DNA of 64,000 bases from a virus (IMGVR_UViG_3300049141_000098:1-64000), one strand, 5' to 3'. Numbered from the stretch's first letter, positions 2,940 through 11,892 are shown. Notes: generated from the letters alone by a model not told the origin. Translations and numbers: made by a program.

Positions 2940-3353
2940 ATGGCCCACATCGGGATAAAGTACAACTATAGGTTCGGCGGCGCCCAGAGGTACTACGGCG
3001 GCGGAACGCCTTCTGGCGCATTCGACATCGGACTGTCGGCATTCGTCGTCGACCACCTCAACAAGTCACGTCAGCGCCTTGTGCTCGACATGTCCAACTC
3101 CCGGCGCCGAGGTGAGGCGCTGGTACGGGCGAAGTCCCGCGTCGACACTGGCCGCATGCAGTCTTCGGTCCGGGGGACGGGTGACTTCGGTACCGACATC
3201 CTGAAGATCTCCTTCGGCTGGGAGCACAACGACCCCTTCTATGCCCCCTTCCAGGAGTTCGGTACCCGGACCGGTATCACGCCGATGATGGCCGTCCTCG
3301 ACGCCTTCAACTCTGTCACCGCCGAACTCTCGGCACGCCTCGGAGGCCGGTGA
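2940..3353 (+). CDS. HK97 gp10-like neck/tail-completion protein
   Basis: 'SRVDTGRMQSS' and 'YAPFQEFGT' motifs typical of the HK97-gp10 family. Confidence 0.8.
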   Translation: MAHIGIKYNYRFGGAQRYYGGGTPSGAFDIGLSAFVVDHLNKSRQRLVLDMSNSRRRGEALVRAKSRVDTGRMQSSVRGTGDFGTDILKISFGWEHNDPFYAPFQEFGTRTGITPMMAVLDAFNSVTAELSARLGGR

Positions 3354-3835
3354 TGGTCTCCGTCCTGGACTGGCAGCTCGACATCTACCGGCGCATCGAC
3401 ACCGGGTTGCCGAATACTCCTGTGCACCTGGAGGGCCTCGGGGAGAGCACCGACATCACGCCAGATCCGTCCGGGTTCTATAAGCCGTCGGTCATCCTGT
3501 GGTTCGGTCAGGCTTTCGACCTCTCCGGGTTCGGCGGCCGTCTCACCGTCACCGACCTCTGCGGTTTGGGCGGCAGCGGGGAGACGACGAAGCAAGCCGC
3601 GTTCATCACGCAGCTCGTCGCCCCCTCCGGCCTCTCTTTGCTTCAGCTCGGCCAGGCGGTACGAGATTTGGTCGAGGGGTACGCCCCGTTGGGCCAGGGG
3701 GAGCTGAGCGAAGCGGGGTCAGGAACAGTCCGGGATCCATACCCTGTAGGTATCGGCGACACTCTGCGGTTCTACCTGGCGATCGGCTACAAGGGCACCC
3801 TGAACACGAGCCCGTACAGCGAAGTGGGTTCCTGA
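3350..3835 (+). CDS. Tail terminator protein
   Basis: Follows the gp10-like gene with GTGA coupling; size and position fit a terminator. Confidence 0.6.
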   Translation: MMVSVLDWQLDIYRRIDTGLPNTPVHLEGLGESTDITPDPSGFYKPSVILWFGQAFDLSGFGGRLTVTDLCGLGGSGETTKQAAFITQLVAPSGLSLLQLGQAVRDLVEGYAPLGQGELSEAGSGTVRDPYPVGIGDTLRFYLAIGYKGTLNTSPYSEVGS

Positions 3836-3944
3836 TCGGTCGTCCGGGATGATGGGTTCAAGCCAGAGAGAGTGCCAGTGCGCCAGGTTTCCATGGGAGT
3901 GCAACTTCGGCCCCGGTGCGCGCCCTTGTGCCGCAAGTGGCAAG

Positions 3945-3950
3945 TAGAAT
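3945..3950 (+). promoter_or_regulatory. -10 box TAGAAT of a probable leaderless transcript for the MurG-like gene
   Basis: TAGAAT lies 7 nt before the GTG at 3958; no RBS visible. Confidence 0.55.
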
Positions 3951-3957
3951 ACCGAGA

Positions 3958-5133
3958 GTGATCACTACAGCCCCCCTCCCCCGCTCGCTTCGCCTGGCCG
4001 TCACTGGCGGAGGCACGGGCGGCCACACTTATCCGGCCCTGACCGTGATCCGTGTCCTGCGCGATCGACTCGCGGAGACGGGGGGGGCGCTAGATGTCCT
4101 GTGGGTAGGGTCGGAGGACGGGCTTGAGGCGAAGGTCGCCGCCTCGGAAGGAATCGCCTTCGCCCCGGTGGCCACAGGCAAAATCCGTCGGTCCAGCAAC
4201 CCCTTGAAACTGGCCAGCCCGGCGAACGTGCGCGACATGGCCCGGGTGCCTCTGGGGGTCGCGCAGGCGCGGAAAGCCATCTCGGATTTTCAGCCGGATG
4301 TCGTTCTCGCGACGGGCGGTTATGTGGCCGTACCTGCTGGCCTCGCAGCACGCATGTGTCGTCGCCCCTTGGTGTTGCATGAACAGACGGTGCGTCTGGG
4401 TCTGGCCAATCGCAAGCTCGCGAGTTCGGCAACCCTGATCGCTCTCTCCTCGGAGTCCTCCCTGGGCCTGCTCCCCCAGGCAATGCGCAGCCTTGGGGTA
4501 GTGACCGGCAATCCGATCCGGTCCGAGATCTTGTCCGGCCAGGCCGACAGGGCGGTTGCGTCTTTGGGTTTGCACGGCTTCGACCGGAGTCTCCCCACGG
4601 TGTACGTCACGGGAGGGGCGCAGGGGTCACGGCAGATCAATGCGGTGGTCAGCGATTCGTTGCCGTGGATTCTCCAGCGGGCTAACGTCATCCACCAGTG
4701 CGGCCCAGGCAACGTCGAGGCCATGCGTACTGGCGCCGGGCGCCTGTCTGGCGATCTGGTTGGCAGGTATCACCTGACGGACTTCATCGGCCCTGAACTG
4801 CCGGATGTTCTGGCGCTCTGCGACGTGATGATCTCGCGGAGCGGAGCGGGAACGCTGGCTGAGGTGACCGCTCTGGGTAAGGCCGCCCTGTTCATTCCTC
4901 TCGCCACGGCAGCGGGGAGCGAGCAGGCCCACAATGCCCGCCACCTGGTGGACGCAGGTGCAGCTGCGGCCTTGTTGGACGAGGTCACACCTGCGAGCCT
5001 GCGCAAGGCCCTGGAGCCGCTCCTGACGGACCCTGAAGCCCGGCAAGGTCTTGCGGCGCGGGCGCGCACGCATGGGCGCCCTGACGCGGCAGACAGGCTC
5101 GCTGACGTAGTCCTGTCTGCCGTGGCCAGTTGA
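3958..5133 (+). CDS. MurG-like GT28 glycosyltransferase (paralog outside a dcw cluster)
   Basis: 'GGGTGGHTYP', 'ATGGYVAVP', 'HEQT', 'TGNPIR', 'GGAQGS', 'SRSGAGT' and 'EQAHNA' G-loops and motifs of the MurG family. Confidence 0.9.
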   Translation: MITTAPLPRSLRLAVTGGGTGGHTYPALTVIRVLRDRLAETGGALDVLWVGSEDGLEAKVAASEGIAFAPVATGKIRRSSNPLKLASPANVRDMARVPLGVAQARKAISDFQPDVVLATGGYVAVPAGLAARMCRRPLVLHEQTVRLGLANRKLASSATLIALSSESSLGLLPQAMRSLGVVTGNPIRSEILSGQADRAVASLGLHGFDRSLPTVYVTGGAQGSRQINAVVSDSLPWILQRANVIHQCGPGNVEAMRTGAGRLSGDLVGRYHLTDFIGPELPDVLALCDVMISRSGAGTLAEVTALGKAALFIPLATAAGSEQAHNARHLVDAGAAAALLDEVTPASLRKALEPLLTDPEARQGLAARARTHGRPDAADRLADVVLSAVAS

Positions 5134-5139
5134 GGCAGT

Positions 5140-6288
5140 TCAGGGGCTTGTGCCCAAGGCAGCCCGTGTCGACTTGAGGGCACGTTCGAGAGACGTCACC
5201 ACGTGGTCGATGTCCGTCTTGGTTAGATGCTGATGGAACGGTAGAGTCAGGATTTCCGTGGCAACCTGCTCAGTGGCGGGCATACTTCGCCTCCAGGGTG
5301 CGAACGCTGCCTGAAGATGGTTGGGCGGGTAGTGAACACCTACGCCAACACCCTGAGACCGCAAATGCGCGAATACCGCATCCCGCCGACTCACCCGGAC
5401 CTGACAGAGATGCGGCACGGAGCGGTCTGCATCGACATCTATGAGCGTCACGCCGTCCAGCGGCTCAAGGGCAGACCGGTAAGCGCGCCACAGGTCGCGG
5501 CGTGCGCGCTCTGTGGTCTCGAAGTGGTCGAGCTGCGCAAGTCCGATGGCGGCGTTGATGCCGGAGAGCTGGTAGCGCAGCCCGAAGGTCTCCACGTGAT
5601 AGGTGGTGATATTCGCCCGTTCGGCCTGAGACTGGACAACTCCGAGAAGACGGAGTCGTCGCAGGGTGTCGGCCTCTTCACTGGACCGAGGGATCACCAT
5701 GCCGCCCTGACCGCATGTCAGGGTCTTGATCGGGCCAAAGGAGAAGCAGGTCAGGTCACCCGTCGCCCCAACTTTGCGGGCGCCGTTACGGGAGCCGAAG
5801 GCGTGCGCGGCATCCTCGATAACGGCGATGTTCCGGTCGGACAGCTCTCTGCGTACGCCGGAGAAGTCGATGGCCCGGCCGCCGAAGAGAACGGGCATCA
5901 CCGCGCGGGTGTGTTCGGTGACGGCCCCCATGATGAGCCGGTCTGTCACACACAGCGTGGCTGGGTCGACGTCCACGAAGACCGGGGTGGCGCCGACGGC
6001 CAGAATCGCCTGGATGGTCGCACAGAACGTCATGCTCGGAACGATCACCTCGTCACCAGATCCAATACCTGTAGCGACAAGGGCCAGATGGAGGGCGGCC
6101 GTGCCGGACGCGACGGCCACGGCGTCAGGGACGCCGAGGAATTCGGCGACACGGCGTTCGAATTCCTCGGTGACTTCGCTGTGCCCGTACTGTCCGGAAT
6201 CCAGCACCCGGGCTACGGCCGCCGCCTCCTCTCCGTAGAGGAACGGGCTGGCGTTGCGCCGGGCGTCCGGCCTCGATGACTCGGTCAC
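5140..6288 (-). CDS. DegT/DnrJ/EryC1/StrS PLP-dependent sugar aminotransferase
   Basis: 'ASGTAALHLAL', 'IEDAAHAFG' and 'CFSFGPIKTLTCGQGG' (PLP lysine). Confidence 0.92.
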   Translation of the reverse strand: MTESSRPDARRNASPFLYGEEAAAVARVLDSGQYGHSEVTEEFERRVAEFLGVPDAVAVASGTAALHLALVATGIGSGDEVIVPSMTFCATIQAILAVGATPVFVDVDPATLCVTDRLIMGAVTEHTRAVMPVLFGGRAIDFSGVRRELSDRNIAVIEDAAHAFGSRNGARKVGATGDLTCFSFGPIKTLTCGQGGMVIPRSSEEADTLRRLRLLGVVQSQAERANITTYHVETFGLRYQLSGINAAIGLAQLDHFETTERARRDLWRAYRSALEPLDGVTLIDVDADRSVPHLCQVRVSRRDAVFAHLRSQGVGVGVHYPPNHLQAAFAPWRRSMPATEQVATEILTLPFHQHLTKTDIDHVVTSLERALKSTRAALGTSP

Positions 6289-7526
6289 GACTCCCCCTCG
6301 CTGACGTCGTTGATGGGACGGACGATTGGCTGGATCAATGCACTTGCCGCCTCTATGGCCGACGACACGTCCGTCACCGTCGATCCACTGGCGAGGAGCA
6401 TGCCGATCTTGTGGCCGGATTGGTCATGTGGGCGTACGCGGTCACCTGGCTCGGCGTACAGCTCGACCTCGGTGATCCCGGGAATGCTGCGGGCCTCGGC
6501 GACGCCCTTCCATGCGACCAACTCGCCGTCCACGGCGAGCGGTGACCCGATCAGCTCGACCGCCGCATGCGCTTTGCGCGTTGGCACCAGGTAGTCCTCG
6601 AACGGCTCGCCCAGTGCGAGTGCAACCAGGGCGCCCACAACGTTCACGCCGTAGGCGGCTGCATGCAGTCGCGGAATGCTGTCACCGCTGAGGCGCGGAT
6701 TGGCCTCGATGATGCGCCCTTGACCATCCGGCCCAAGGACGAGGTCGAAGTTCGCAGGTCCGTTGGTGATGCCGAGCGTGCGGCACAGCCGCTCGGCGGT
6801 CGCCTCAAGGTGGCCGTGCTCCACCGGAGACAGTTGCGCTGTGCCGATCCGCTTGACGACAAACCCCCCGGCGACGAGTTCCTGATCTTTGATGCAGGTC
6901 ATCACCGACGCGCCGTTCAGTAGGAAAAGATCGATGGTCAACTGGCGGCCCCGTACGAACTCCTCGGCCATCACGGTCCGGGAGGGCGAGTAGGTGCGGG
7001 CGTGGGTGACGGCGGCGGGCAGGCCACCCACGCTGGTGACGCACGTGACGCCCTTGCTTCCCGACCCGTCTACGGGTTTGACCATGAGTGGGAAGCGCAG
7101 CCGAGCCGCTTTCGCGACGACCTTCTCCGGATCGCCTGATGCGACCCATCCGTAGCTGGCGACGCCGCACGATGCGGCAATCTCATGGAAGGCGGCCTTG
7201 TCGAGGGCGGCAACGAGCGCCTTCTCGGGGTACACGTAGGGAGTGCCGTACCGCAGACTCAGGGTGCGCCAACTGGCCAGTGCGGCATCACTCGCGCCGA
7301 CCACGATTCCGGCGGGGCGCACGTCGCCCAGCGCGTCGGCAATGGCATCGGCGTCCCGGGTGGAGATCTGGAGAACCGCGTCGGCGAACGGGAACGCGGG
7401 GGCATCCGCCCGCATGTCCACCGCGATGGCCGGGATGCCGCGACGATGCGCCTCCTGGTACAGCGGAATGTGCTCTTCCGATGCGCCGAGCACGAGCAGT
7501 CCGTTGTTCGGCAACTGGTCAGACAT
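6285..7526 (-). CDS. ATP-grasp fold ligase
   Basis: 'VKPVDGSGSKGV', 'EEFVRG' and 'IEANPRLSG'; start overlaps the rfbB stop and end overlaps the DegT start (ATGA). Confidence 0.85.
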   Translation of the reverse strand: MSDQLPNNGLLVLGASEEHIPLYQEAHRRGIPAIAVDMRADAPAFPFADAVLQISTRDADAIADALGDVRPAGIVVGASDAALASWRTLSLRYGTPYVYPEKALVAALDKAAFHEIAASCGVASYGWVASGDPEKVVAKAARLRFPLMVKPVDGSGSKGVTCVTSVGGLPAAVTHARTYSPSRTVMAEEFVRGRQLTIDLFLLNGASVMTCIKDQELVAGGFVVKRIGTAQLSPVEHGHLEATAERLCRTLGITNGPANFDLVLGPDGQGRIIEANPRLSGDSIPRLHAAAYGVNVVGALVALALGEPFEDYLVPTRKAHAAVELIGSPLAVDGELVAWKGVAEARSIPGITEVELYAEPGDRVRPHDQSGHKIGMLLASGSTVTDVSSAIEAASALIQPIVRPINDVSEGES

Positions 7527-8541
7527 GCTGCGGCTCCCGAGGAGTATTGGTGGTGACGCGTGGACGGGGGGTGGCAGCGCCGTGCTGCGGCAGCGCCCAC
7601 CGGCCGGGACTGCGGCGGTACCACTCGACGGTCTCAGCCAGGGCTTCACGGAAGTCGCGCTGGGGCTTGTAGCCGAGCTGGCCGGATATCTTGTCCCAGG
7701 TCATCGCGTACCTGTAATCGTTGGCCTGCCGGTCCGGAACGTACGTGACCAGATCCCAATCAGCGCTGCACAGGTGCAGCAGCTCTCCGGTCAGCTCCTT
7801 GCTCGTCAGGTCGGTGCCGCCACCGATGTTGTAGACCTCGCCGGGCGTGCCTTCGCGCAGGACCAGTTCAATACCGGCGCAGTTGTCGCTGACGTGGAGC
7901 CAATTGCGCACGTGCTGCCCCCGGTCGTGCAGGGTCACCAGTTCGCCGCGAAGGAGGCGGGTCGTGAACAGCGGAATGATCTTCTCTGGATACTGGTGGG
8001 ATCCATAGTTGTTGGAGGACCGGGTAACGCAGACCGGCACGCCGTGGGTGTGCCAGTAGCTGAGAGCCACCAGGTCGCTAGCCGCCTTCGACGCCGCATA
8101 CGGGACGCCTGGACGCAGAGGGAATTCCTCTGTCGCGGCACCGACAGAGAGGGATCCGTAGACCTCATCGGTGGAGACGTGCACAAAACGCTGGACGCCG
8201 TGACGCGTGGCGGCATCCAGGAGGGTCTGGGTGCCGAGGACGTTGGTGTGGACGAAGTCGGCGGCTCCGCTGATCGAGCGGTCGACGTGGGACTCGGCAG
8301 CGAAGTGCACGATCGCGTCGTGTCGGCTGGCAAGGTCGTCCACCAGGGCCTTGTCGTTGATGCTGCCCTCGACGAACGTCAGCTTCGGATCGAGGAGTAC
8401 GTCACCGAGGTTCGCCAGGCTCCCTGCATAGGTGAGGGCGTCGAGCACGGTAATCGTGGCGATGTCGCCGGACTTCACTATGCGCTTGACGAAGTGCGAT
8501 CCGATGAAACCAGCCCCACCCGTCACCAGTACGTTGTCCAT
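7519..8541 (-). CDS. rfbB: dTDP-glucose 4,6-dehydratase (RmlB/RfbB)
   Basis: 'VTGGAGFIGS', 'HFAAESHVDRSI', 'STDEVYG', 'YAASK' and 'NNYGSHQYPEKIIP'. Confidence 0.93.
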   Translation of the reverse strand: MDNVLVTGGAGFIGSHFVKRIVKSGDIATITVLDALTYAGSLANLGDVLLDPKLTFVEGSINDKALVDDLASRHDAIVHFAAESHVDRSISGAADFVHTNVLGTQTLLDAATRHGVQRFVHVSTDEVYGSLSVGAATEEFPLRPGVPYAASKAASDLVALSYWHTHGVPVCVTRSSNNYGSHQYPEKIIPLFTTRLLRGELVTLHDRGQHVRNWLHVSDNCAGIELVLREGTPGEVYNIGGGTDLTSKELTGELLHLCSADWDLVTYVPDRQANDYRYAMTWDKISGQLGYKPQRDFREALAETVEWYRRSPGRWALPQHGAATPRPRVTTNTPREPQHV

Positions 8542-8836
8542 AATGTCTCCGATGTGAATGCGAACAGTTCGAAAGTTCGCAAAGAAGGCCGCTCGACATA
8601 TCTGCGGGCAGTGCGCCCTGCGCTGCGACTGTGGATCCCTTTACCGGGGCCCTGTCGAAGGCGGCAGACAGCATCCTGACCGCCCGTCAGTCCGTCTGAG
8701 AAGGGCACCTCCACTGCCTCGCGCTGCCTCGATTTGCCTCCCTTTGCCTCTCGATGCGTCCTTCTTGACCCGTCAGTACCACCGTGTTGGACACTGGCGG
8801 TATCGGATCGGAGTAGAAAAGGGCGGGAGGCGCGGT

Positions 8837-10201
8837 ATGTCCACATCCATGGAAGAGGACTTGATTCAGCGCGTACTCGATCTGTTGGGCTGCCGAGATC
8901 ACGCCACGTTCTTAAGGCGCCTGGCGGAATGTCACAACGCCCTCGGTTACGGGCACATGGCGACCAGACCAGAGAAGATCAGCCGCTGGAAGCGGGGAGT
9001 GCGCCCCGACCGGTACGCCGAGATGGCCCTGGCCTCCATGCTCGGCGTACCGGTGGAGCAAGTCCGAACGTTGGGCTGGCCAGACTGGCTGCGCGTTGCC
9101 CTGGACGCCGATCAGATACTGCTGAATGCCCCTTGGACTCCGGCCGGTGCCCTCGAAGTGCTGGACCATCTAGGAAAGCCGGACGGTATGGATCGACGAT
9201 CAGCAATTCTCAGCGGCGGCGCTCTGACCGCAGCCATCCTCACGAACTGGACCTCGGCGTCTGCGGCCACTGCGGTACATGACCCGAGCCGACCACGCGT
9301 CACCGACCGCAGCGCCGCACTGATCGACGCCCGCCTTGCGGCGTTGCGCCAGCTCGACGACGAGATCGGATCCACTGAGACGTACGCACTGGCGCGCGCG
9401 GAGCGGGCGTCCATCGTCACGGTGCTGCGCACTCGGTCCTTCAGCGAGGCCGTTACGCGGCGGCTCTTCTCGGCTGCCGCAGAAGCGTCACGGATATGCG
9501 GATGGTGCGCCTTCGACTCCGGGAGTATGGCTGCGGCCGAGCATCACTACATGGGGGCTGCGAGGGCCGCCGCGACTGCGCAGGACTCCGTAGTCACGGC
9601 CAACCTGTTCAACTTCTGGGCCATGGTCAGGTACAGCGACGGGGACACCTCCGGGGCTCTGGATTACGCCGAAGAGGCCCTCAGGCAGGCACGGCGCACT
9701 GGCTCCCCCCGGCTGATCGCCCTGACCCACGCCCGAATTTCCCGCGCTCACGCCAAGGCGGGGGATCTCCTGTCCAGCCGACGGGCCGAGGAGGCCGCCT
9801 TCACGGCCTTCGAGGCGGCCGGTGACCCGGGCGACGAGCCGGGCTGTGTCTACTGGGTCAGCAGGGAGGAACTGCACAGTTGGGCGGCGAGCAATGCGTC
9901 CGACCTCAACGACCCGCGCCGGGCACTGTCTCACTACGGCGCCATCTCAGCTCTTCATCGCGCGGCGGCGAATCAGGGCACCTATCCGCGCTCGCGTGCT
10001 CTGCGCCTGGTACGTGAAGCGAAGACTCACCTGTCCCTGCGGGATGTCGATGCCGCGCTGCACGCGGCCGATCAGGCCGTTCAGACGATGGGGGGTGTGA
10101 CCTCTCCTCGGGGCGCGACCATACTGACAGGCCTGCGCAGCAAGCTTCAAGCGCATGGGCAACTTCCCGGAGTGCGCGGATTCCTTGAGCGAACTGCCTG
10201 A
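8837..10201 (+). CDS. Streptomyces-type transcriptional regulator (N-terminal XRE-like HTH, C-terminal TPR-like helices); contains an in-frame TTA
   Basis: 'KISRWKRGVRPD...ALASMLGV' HTH, 'MDRRSAILSGG' linker and alanine-rich helical repeats; RBS GGGAGG; divergent from rfbB. Confidence 0.75.
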   Translation: MSTSMEEDLIQRVLDLLGCRDHATFLRRLAECHNALGYGHMATRPEKISRWKRGVRPDRYAEMALASMLGVPVEQVRTLGWPDWLRVALDADQILLNAPWTPAGALEVLDHLGKPDGMDRRSAILSGGALTAAILTNWTSASAATAVHDPSRPRVTDRSAALIDARLAALRQLDDEIGSTETYALARAERASIVTVLRTRSFSEAVTRRLFSAAAEASRICGWCAFDSGSMAAAEHHYMGAARAAATAQDSVVTANLFNFWAMVRYSDGDTSGALDYAEEALRQARRTGSPRLIALTHARISRAHAKAGDLLSSRRAEEAAFTAFEAAGDPGDEPGCVYWVSREELHSWAASNASDLNDPRRALSHYGAISALHRAAANQGTYPRSRALRLVREAKTHLSLRDVDAALHAADQAVQTMGGVTSPRGATILTGLRSKLQAHGQLPGVRGFLERTA

Positions 10202-10390
10202 AAGCAAACTCGTTCCGACCCTGCGTGAGACGCCCTCCGGAGTCCCGATGGGGGCGAAGCGGATTGACTCCGAAAAGGGCAACGACAGGAATGGGTAAGG
10301 AAGTAGACTTTAAACTCGAATAAACTTGAAGTTGTGCAGGGGCTATGCCGCACTAAACGGCAGGTTCTGCACCGCTCTTGACGGAAGCAG

Positions 10391-10434
10391 AAAGCCCCCA
10401 TTCGGTGATGCACAGTCACCCGAATGGGGGCTTT
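10391..10434. terminator. Bidirectional terminator-like hairpin
   Basis: Perfect 14-bp inverted repeat AAAGCCCCCATTCG / CGAATGGGGGCTTT. Confidence 0.75.
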
Positions 10435-10489
10435 CCCCGTTATGATCCGGCTGAAAGATCATGCCTTCCGGCCGGAGGTACAAACCGAC

Positions 10490-11056
10490 ATGGCAGCAGT
10501 GAAGAGTTTGCCACCCTCCTTGACCATCTGGTGGGTGGATGAGTCGGATCAGACGGCCCTCGGTTACGAGGGAACGTACGGCGAGGGATTCGCTGATATC
10601 GACCACCCGACCGCCGCCGAGATCAACGCGGGCCTGAACATCTCGTGCGCCCTGACCACCGACATCACGCTCGGCTGGACGGACCGCGACACGGATGACA
10701 CCCGTGGTCTCTGCGACGACTCGAACGTGGCGACGCCAACAGCCAAGAATTACGAAGGCCAGTTGAACGTCTTCCTCGACCGCGACCCGAACAAGCTCGA
10801 CCCGAGCATCTACAACGACGTGATGCGGCTTTTCAAGAAGCCGCTGAGGTCGGGCTATCTCGTGCAGCGGATCTCAAAGCACCCGGTTCGGGATCCGCAG
10901 GCGTCGAACACCGACTGGGTCACCGTCTACAAGTTCCTCAGTGGCGACCCCAATGTCATCAACGACGCCACCGCCCCGCTCCAGCTCCAGCCGACGATGT
11001 ACCCCCAGGGGCAGTCGTCGGATGGCCTGGTGCAGGTCGGCAGCACTGGTAGCTGA
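10490..11056 (+). CDS. Major tail (tube) protein
   Basis: 'PTAAEINAGLNISCAL...DTRGLCD' actinophage tail-tube pattern; GGAGG RBS; precedes chaperone and tape measure. Confidence 0.85.
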   Translation: MAAVKSLPPSLTIWWVDESDQTALGYEGTYGEGFADIDHPTAAEINAGLNISCALTTDITLGWTDRDTDDTRGLCDDSNVATPTAKNYEGQLNVFLDRDPNKLDPSIYNDVMRLFKKPLRSGYLVQRISKHPVRDPQASNTDWVTVYKFLSGDPNVINDATAPLQLQPTMYPQGQSSDGLVQVGSTGS

Positions 11057-11082
11057 CAGAACAACCCAAGGGACGGAACAGC

Positions 11083-11892
11083 ATGACGCAGGACAACTCG
11101 GTGCCGGGCAACCCGGAGCCCGGCCCGGACAACTTCAACTTCGAGGACTACCTGGAAGGCGTTTCGACTTTCCCGGTATTCGACCACGTGGCCTACCTCG
11201 ACCAGCGCAGCGGAGCCGAACTGGCGCGCGTTCTGGACGAGCTGGAGGAGGTGGTCGGCGAGCAGGCGCAACTGGACAAGCGGATCGAGGCGCGTACTCA
11301 GCAGTCGACGAATTCCTTCGTCGATGCGGCTCTCGACTCAATGCTCGAAGAGCGCGAGGACTTGAACGGTCACATCGAGAAGCTGCTGGCGCGGCGGGAC
11401 AAGCTGACCGAGAAGATCAAGACGTCGTCTCTCAAGCTCCTCTTCCAGGTCAAGACCCCGGAGGAGCTTGGCACTGTCACCCGCGAGGCGACGCGGCAGT
11501 TCCACAAGGAGAACCAGCACTTCAAGAATGCCAGCGACGATGATCTCGATTACATCACCGCCCGCAGCCGCTATCTGCTCACCGCGCAGATAGCGCACTT
11601 CTGCACAGGCATGACGCTGCCTGACGGACGAAACGTTCCTCCGCCGACGCGGCAGGGCGCGGAGAAGCTGCTGGGGTCGCTGATCTCGTCGGAGATGATG
11701 CGCCTGATGGAGTCGGTCGGCACTGGCCTGTCTGCCTCGCAGGACTGGGCGGACAAGCTCGATGCCGGATTTCCTGGCCGAGGCTCTGACGTGGAAGAGG
11801 AACGCGTGGCTGAGGACCGCGCTGAAGGCGGCGAAGTCGTGGGGCCTGCCCCCTCTCACGATGATCACCGGGAACCCCTCAGACTGGGCTGA
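11083..11892 (+). CDS. Tail assembly chaperone (gpG equivalent)
   Basis: Position between tail tube and tape measure; helical and acidic. Confidence 0.75.
   Translation: MTQDNSVPGNPEPGPDNFNFEDYLEGVSTFPVFDHVAYLDQRSGAELARVLDELEEVVGEQAQLDKRIEARTQQSTNSFVDAALDSMLEEREDLNGHIEKLLARRDKLTEKIKTSSLKLLFQVKTPEELGTVTREATRQFHKENQHFKNASDDDLDYITARSRYLLTAQIAHFCTGMTLPDGRNVPPPTRQGAEKLLGSLISSEMMRLMESVGTGLSASQDWADKLDAGFPGRGSDVEEERVAEDRAEGGEVVGPAPSHDDHREPLRLG

Follow-up and report, generated by a model that had tools for sequence, protein, structure and literature searches.

A host-derived amino-sugar operon and an MglA-type glycosyltransferase inserted between tail genes of large Streptomyces phages, with a possible role in envelope modification

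We analyzed a 64,000-nucleotide (nt) stretch of viral DNA (IMGVR_UViG_3300049141_000098:1-64000; here, the window), which represents the opening 64 kb of an IMG/VR virus record (259,646 bp, with direct repeats at its termini) and whose tail genes are 81–85% identical in nt sequence to those of the large Streptomyces phages Kela, Satis and Frankenweenie. A five-gene cassette lies between its gene for a tail terminator-like protein (3350-3835, + strand) and that for its major tail (tube) protein (10490-11056, + strand). Following the left junction and upstream region (3836-3957), a glycosyltransferase (GT) family 28 gene on the + strand (GT28; 391 amino acids [aa], 3958-5133) converges on a - strand operon, which encodes an RmlB/DesIV-type deoxythymidine diphosphate (dTDP)-glucose 4,6-dehydratase (rfbB; 340 aa, 7519-8541), an ATP-grasp ligase of the L-amino-acid-ligase type (413 aa, 6285-7526) and a DegT/DnrJ/EryC1-family sugar aminotransferase (382 aa, 5140-6288). 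A divergent control region (8542-8836) separates the operon from a + strand gene for an NsdA-family regulator of 450–454 aa (8837-10201), which is helix-turn-helix (HTH)/tetratricopeptide repeat (TPR)-like. The initial annotation had described an overlapping - strand operon with a divergent regulator and a convergent GT28, and all five genes are indeed intact and so arranged; its description was altered only at three gene starts. The ATP-grasp start was set at 7526, yielding the 413 aa of the called protein P0001 (homologs have 407–413 aa) and overlaps between the operon genes of 8 nt (7519-7526) and 4 nt (6285-6288). For the regulator, a start at 8837 or 8849 replaces the open reading frame (ORF) start of 8558, and the tail tube ATG was moved from 10424 to 10490, where it is preceded by GGAGG and gives a 188-aa protein that agrees in length with its relatives.

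The 161-aa protein encoded to the left of the cassette had no Pfam or named PHROG match in our family scans. Its AlphaFold model (predicted local distance difference test [pLDDT] score of 71) matched the tail terminators lambda gpU, Mu, T1 and T5 p142 in Foldseek searches (E 1e-4 to 1e-2), and its gene is conserved in all relatives, immediately 5′ of the tail tube gene (PF25595; PHROG 2491). On fold and synteny, this phage backbone protein is predicted to be a gpU-like siphophage tail terminator. That terminator and tube genes are normally adjacent, as the initial annotation had assumed, was borne out by 16 relatives: in Kela, Frankenweenie and 14 IMG/VR relatives the two are 35–360 bp apart as measured between tblastn match ends, and the annotated genes of Kela and Frankenweenie are ~92 bp apart. 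DNA homology to these two cassette-less phages ends at ~3795-3835 and restarts at ~10427. Because the relatives have both genes adjacent, the 6.6 kb that separates them in the window is an insertion.

It is extremely improbable that this insert is a misassembly or recently acquired, functionless host DNA. The GC content of the insert (0.65–0.69, against ~0.60–0.64 in the flanks) and the presence of host-like DNA in an uncultured metagenome record would fit such an origin, but several observations already contradict it. A single 12.3-kb contig from a soil run that is possibly the source sample covers 3000-11500 without any difference, and contigs from two other studies, which carry a variant at 90–99% identity, bridge the left, gene–gene, control-region and right junctions. 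Thus, a chimeric assembly at the cassette edges is excluded. In addition, the same layout is found in the independent contigs L054, L055 and L037, the ORFs are intact, GC at third codon positions is like that of other phage genes, and the ratio of nonsynonymous to synonymous substitution rates (dN/dS) is 0.05–0.32. The conserved rfbB core (7544-8395) is covered in runs X3 and X4 to a depth of 60–140, compared to ~10 elsewhere, by many short contigs from other organisms; this excess stems from soil bacteria with similar rfbB genes and not from the phage. Two soil runs, X1 and X2, contain this phage or a relative at high depth.

The operon enzymes look active, with the catalytic motifs of the dehydratase and the cofactor-binding lysine of the aminotransferase intact. 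The dehydratase scores barely over the TIGR01181 cut-off (369.5 versus 365.1 bits) and matches DesIV (1r66) with an E value of 1.7e-106; its GGAGFIGS, STDEVYG and YAASK motifs align with those of DesIV, leaving the NAD site and the short-chain dehydrogenase/reductase catalytic residues intact, and the enzyme looks dTDP-specific. The aminotransferase matches PF01041 (E 1e-99, 334.6 bits) over positions 6–359 of 360, and its pyridoxal phosphate-binding lysine, within FSFGPIK, aligns with K188 of ArnB. Among solved structures it is closest to ArnB, DesV, WbpE and perosamine synthase, and it fell under the cut-off of every named equivalog tried (PseC, ArnB, WecE and DesI; the best was PseC, with 264.7 versus 423.5). 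The third enzyme combines ATP-grasp domains with an LAL_C2 domain (PF18603, 65.6 versus a cut-off of 29.4). Its model (pLDDT 94) has as nearest folds 4dim, the L-amino-acid ligases BL00235, RizA and BacD (template modeling scores of 0.73–0.80) and PurT.

These families, the intact motifs and the L-amino-acid-ligase/PurT-like fold fit the initial annotation's proposal of a pathway to an N-acylated amino-deoxysugar, in which the chemistry is predicted. Specifically, RmlB would convert host dTDP-glucose to dTDP-4-keto-6-deoxyglucose, DegT would transaminate the 4-keto-6-deoxy sugar to an amino-dideoxyhexose, and the ATP-grasp enzyme would link the sugar amine, through an acyl-phosphate, in an amide bond to an amino acid (probably making an aminoacyl derivative) or to another small carboxylate. 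RmlA, reported absent from the window, was not found in the whole 260-kb genome either, so the starting point would be dTDP-glucose of the host. The order of an RmlB-type dehydratase followed by a DegT-family aminotransferase is that of known dTDP-amino-deoxysugar pathways (DesIV/DesV of S. venezuelae; viosamine and perosamine). Unlike those, the cassette is without RmlA, an isomerase or an N-methyl- or N-acetyltransferase, and has an ATP-grasp ligase and a transferase that is MurG-like, not GT1-type. With BacD/YwfE, RizA, BL00235 and PurT the ligase shares the fold, the LAL_C2 domain and, as predicted, ATP-dependent amide formation via an acyl-phosphate; it differs in being only 15–20% identical to them and in its operon context, which points to a nucleotide-sugar amine as the nucleophile. 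PurT itself acylates an amine on a ribose derivative.

The enzymes are host-derived and not a phage invention, as comparison with actinomycete sequences indicates. Relatives of the ATP-grasp protein are numerous in Streptomyces, Kitasatospora and Streptacidiphilus, with up to 81–82% identity (81% to a protein from Streptomyces canus). In 24 distinct complete loci the genes follow the phage order RmlB/ATP-grasp/DegT/GT28, with 61–81% aa identity; the GT28 gene there is convergent or co-directional, and the genomic flanks vary. Three further host loci are truncated or decayed. The cluster also occurs on plasmids (L016; pSGZL of Streptomyces sp. 769). Thus, the composition is not unique to this phage: the same enzyme set forms a recurrent accessory cluster in Streptomycetaceae, and at least two more lineages of uncultured phages have it at this site. 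In line with the initial remark that no described phage system of this composition is known, the ATP-grasp protein is absent from the named phages in the collection searched: tblastn against annotated phages gave no match. A peptide-pattern search of IMG/VR also returned no relatives, although its sensitivity was limited, as phage copies were later found by protein look-ups. Two host loci deserve mention. At L063:1284-6254, a different ATP-grasp enzyme, of the PylC/Ter type, lies between RmlB and DegT, and the regulator is 41% identical to that of the phage; such a swap at the same position is as expected if the ATP-grasp enzyme sets the acyl group. At L077:6199-6672, only a DegT fragment is left beside GT28.

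The host clusters, exemplified by those of S. canus (JBEXVN010000022) and pSGZL, share with the phage cassette the four enzymes, their order, their overlaps and a divergent HTH/TPR regulator. They differ in the regulator and operator, which in the phage come from another type of cluster. The phage regulator belongs to the NsdA family (NF053720, 254.2 versus a cut-off of 75; PHROG 10886, E 4e-64) and is not NsdA itself (NF050130, 65.4 versus 830). It is 24–32% identical to the native regulators of host RmlB cassettes, 74% identical to a chromosomal regulator that stands beside a UDP-sugar dehydrogenase (UGDH) operon in Streptomyces sp. NBC_01429 (L035), and 86% identical to the regulator of a sister phage, L034 (JBHYKT010000008.1, from GCA_042741515.1). 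The latter, a contig of 253 kb from the assembly of a Streptomyces isolate, has ~80% nt identity to the window across the flanking genes. At the same site (L034:5658-9860), L034 carries, divergent from the same regulator, genes for a nucleotide-sugar (UDP-sugar) dehydrogenase, a 414-aa protein for which Pfam, NCBIfam and PDB gave no relative, and a class-III aminotransferase. This three-gene operon and its regulator are chromosomal in Streptomyces sp. NBC_01429, which carries an RmlB cassette elsewhere.

Homology between the window and L034 is broken exactly over 3836-8697, and homology to both L034 and the host locus L035 begins at 8698-8713, placing a mosaic junction at ~8698 within the control region. 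The region beyond it contains four TGCCT repeats at an exact spacing of 10 bp (8715, 8725, 8735 and 8745; the array extends to 8749), followed by TTGACC. Conservation of the array extends to L037, L054, L034 and host L035 but not to the intergenic regions of native host RmlB cassettes, from which it is absent; it is a likely operator array. The variant host locus L063 has another repeat, GATGACAG, in three copies at the equivalent place. Because homology to L034 and the host resumes at the repeats and the regulator, the site keeps a regulator and operator unit while its payload differs. We therefore rejected the idea that the regulator was acquired together with the enzymes, given its 24–32% identity to their native regulators and the homology break, and the initial view of the cassette as a self-contained single unit was not borne out. 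Likewise, of the five-gene synteny that had been suggested as a check across genomes, plasmids and phages, four enzymes are syntenic and the phage regulator is not with them in host cassettes. The mosaic consists of three units, namely the MglA-type GT28 described below, the RmlB/ATP-grasp/DegT operon, and the regulator with its fourfold TGCCT array from a different host sugar cluster. The regulator would drive the operon divergently, and the pathway may be switched on during infection or carriage. A third relative, the 251-kb IMG/VR record L038, has at this site a single 357-aa gene with a C-terminal HTH_17 domain (L038:8867-9940). Gating of the regulator by TTA codons was considered. The regulator gene has an in-frame TTA at codon 26 (8912-8914), and TTA codons are rare in the window (2 in 10,681 codons of 20 genes). 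L037 shares this TTA, but L034 has it at codon 85, and L054 and host L035 are without it; since its position is not conserved, we do not rely on such gating.

The RmlB cassette is retained under purifying selection in three phage lineages. The same cassette and regulator occupy the same site in L054, a 61.5-kb Logan contig, with 61–80% aa identity, and in L055/L037, from another metagenome, with 92–99% aa identity. For all five genes, dN/dS between phage copies is in the range given above, like that of neighboring structural genes. Together, the shared site in several lineages, the intact ORFs and these ratios argue that the phages use the cassette. In phylogenetic trees a single clade unites the phage GT28s (support 99) and has a Streptomyces copy as its sister, phage RmlB is monophyletic in the best tree (support 88), and monophyly of phage DegT was not rejected (p 0.31). 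In the ATP-grasp tree, the S. canus-like copies are joined by the window copy but not by that of L054, which lies elsewhere; monophyly of the phage copies was weakly rejected (p-AU 0.031, for a grouping named after the tree was seen). This suggests that the ATP-grasp gene was later replaced by recombination with a host copy.

The GT28 protein contains both Pfam GT28 domains (E 1e-27 and 1e-31). We rejected its assignment as a canonical MurG: it falls under the cut-off of the MurG equivalog TIGR01133 (215.7 versus 250.25), is 33% identical to canonical MurG, as compared with that of the same host genome, and has no dcw genes nearby. Its identity is 62–77% to members of a 391-aa family that 141 of 401 Streptomycetaceae genomes (35%) carry. 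These features agree with those of mglA, which is reported in 38% of Streptomyces and Kitasatospora, lies outside dcw and encodes a protein ~31% identical to MurG (PMC8092295). MglA of Kitasatospora viridifaciens experimentally replaces MurG as lipid II synthase (PMC8092295), and MglA-family MurG paralogs have been shown to make lipid II in Kitasatospora and Streptomyces. S. coelicolor and S. lividans lack mglA. Two peptides encoded by the published mglA primers, MRLIVT from the start and DRLVDVL from near the end of the protein, are typical of the GT28 family and absent from canonical MurG; the comparison with K. viridifaciens MglA (BOQ63_RS12640) covered these two peptides. With both domains, the 31–33% identity to MurG, the location outside dcw, the 35–38% prevalence and the primer motifs in common, the cassette GT28 is, by indirect evidence, assigned to the MglA-type family. 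It is unlike the K. viridifaciens protein in being phage-borne and beside an amino-sugar operon, and its lipid II synthesis is predicted only. Other GT28 matches in the phage collection were set aside as bacterial murG contaminants (27–35% identity).

Within host genomes, the operon is tied to GT28. An ATP-grasp ortholog was found in 10 of the 401 sampled Streptomycetaceae species (~2.5%), with GT28 one gene (1.2–1.6 kb) away in nine of the ten, while many GT28 genes stand alone among unrelated genes. As the operon was always found beside a GT28 in complete loci and the reverse does not hold, the operon depends on GT28 and not GT28 on the operon. In a tree of 52 GT28s, operon-linked and unlinked copies are intermixed, requiring at least 10 changes, of which branches with good support impose five. 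Linked and unlinked copies come as close as 0.09 substitutions per site, and one linked and one unlinked gene that are 90% nt identical share no flanking DNA. Because of this intermixing and of the near-identical pair without common flanks, the pairing must recur or persist. The strict adjacency supports, from gene neighborhoods, a functional link between operon and GT28.

The same data bear on an explanation that separates the two functions, with GT28 as an extra lipid II synthase (acting on UDP-N-acetylglucosamine [UDP-GlcNAc] and lipid I) for wall precursor supply, and the operon product going to a host transferase or serving as a signal or free metabolite. The experimental substitution of MurG by MglA (PMC8092295) would agree with this, as would the near identity of linked and unlinked GT28s and the orientation of the phage gene, which is transcribed in the late-gene direction, separate from the operon. 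We nevertheless hold it to be unlikely, because the operon was never seen without an adjacent GT28 (24 complete loci and 9 of 10 sampled genomes) despite the reshuffling of GT28. For the initial proposal that GT28 transfers the pathway product, the outcome is mixed: transfer is plausible, and GT28 is not from a dedicated transferase subfamily, being near-identical with or without an adjacent operon.

The main rival to a role on the host envelope is virion glycan supply. Upstream of the neck and terminator genes lie two coupled genes for GTs, one GT4-like (1069-2079) and one GT2-like (2076-2924) by family scans, which are kept in nearly all close relatives and are candidates for virion glycosylation. 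These would place the operon sugar on capsid or tail, and swapping of payloads would diversify the coat. The cassette sits inside the structural module, two genes after this conserved pair, and the alternative payload of L034 is also nucleotide-sugar chemistry without a GT of its own. Moreover, extensive virion glycosylation is reported in mycobacteriophages (cited in PMC12582341). Set against this, the host operon occurs without phage GTs and always with GT28; all three phage lineages retained GT28 although 35% of potential hosts have their own; the operon points in the opposite direction to the late genes, under a host-type regulator of its own; and most relatives have the GTs yet no cassette. 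On balance, a supply of sugar to the virion seems a minority prospect.

We favor an accessory module of host origin, carried in a lineage of 250–260-kb Streptomyces siphophages, that modifies an envelope precursor via GT28, and we regard this reading as about evenly balanced between right and wrong. For its substrates, product, acceptor and benefit we infer the following. GT28 would put the acylated amino sugar on a polyprenyl-diphosphate-linked envelope precursor (lipid I/II-like), and this would change the infected hypha in its wall or in a wall polymer, for example by receptor masking or exclusion of other phages.

Several points weigh against modification of an envelope precursor. MurG-type enzymes are known with UDP donors, while the cassette RmlB looks dTDP-specific. 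The published member of the MglA family uses UDP-GlcNAc (PMC8092295), and given that GT28 is essentially the same with or without the operon, it may not transfer the operon product at all. As GT28 is not a specialized subfamily, the idea of a dedicated transferase for a new sugar is weakened. The payload of sister phage L034 comes without a GT, so payloads at this site need no dedicated transferase, which leaves room for the phage GTs; indeed, the position in the virion module, close behind those two genes, fits a virion-glycan role equally well. The nearest solved relatives of DegT do not fix its C3 or C4 regiochemistry. Finally, literature searches gave nothing relevant on the host cluster, on ATP-grasp acylation of amino-deoxysugars or on MglA follow-ups.

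A broader extension of envelope-precursor modification concerns the site itself. The terminator/tube junction would be a docking site at which the regulator and TGCCT array stay and host envelope-sugar operons are swapped with chromosomes, the payload and the phage MglA together making modified lipid II or a wall glycan with an aminoacylated amino-dideoxy sugar and thereby altering phage susceptibility or wall behavior. This extension we consider distinctly unlikely in its entirety.

Other features of the region belong to the phage backbone or are variable among relatives. A stem-loop upstream of the tail tube gene (10393-10438, + strand; -37.1 kcal/mol, z -6.2) had been taken to close the right end of the cassette. 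The hairpin is real, but it is no cassette end, as L034, L054 and L038, the last without the cassette, conserve it with compensatory changes upstream of the tube gene; it may serve as a terminator or processing site, or stabilize the transcript of the highly expressed tube gene. A terminator scan gave one weak terminator-like site, inside DegT, which is fewer than in shuffled sequences. A scan for consensus sigma-70-like promoters found none, including in 3836-3957, and is uninformative for Streptomyces-type promoters; TAGAAT lies just 5′ of the GTG start of GT28 at 3958. Chaperone and tape measure genes follow the tail tube gene. Between the second GT gene and the terminator gene lies a gene for a 137-aa neck-like protein. 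The interval between this gene and the terminator gene is a second variable spot (L038:7377-7961, L055:5913-6497 and L034:4545-5174), which in some relatives holds a 194-aa ORF or ~630 bp of extra DNA; a variant contig from run X3 has a 658-letter insert at window positions 3325-3353.

The 260-kb genome also encodes a tyrosine recombinase (Phage_integrase family, 57.6 bits; G000:C1:239710-240198), and ParB was not found in it. The recombinase and the occurrence of sister phage L034 as a full-length contig in an isolate assembly hint at carriage or temperate behavior, and regulated host conversion would make sense in a lifestyle with carriage.

Phage carriage of host-derived sugar genes is already known. 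Like Gtr-type O-antigen conversion modules and mycobacteriophage glycosylation operons, the cassette brings sugar enzymes as accessory cargo that may alter the host surface or the virion. It differs from them in having no GtrA/GtrB-type flippase logic, in having a complete operon for nucleotide-sugar tailoring together with a regulator of host type and a paralog of lipid II synthase, and in that its payload is exchangeable at one site. We have not found described before a phage-borne member of the MglA family, a nucleotide-sugar operon with an ATP-grasp ligase instead of the usual acyltransferase, or a single structural-gene hot spot at which whole sugar operons are exchanged under a constant regulator and operator. 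The strict adjacency of operon and mglA offers a concrete hypothesis for roles of MglA-type enzymes besides backup of MurG. Should the product be attached to peptidoglycan or a wall polymer, the finding would be relevant to phage receptors and resistance among antibiotic-producing actinomycetes; should it be attached to virions, virion glycosylation would extend to Streptomyces phages, with a sugar supply under phage control.

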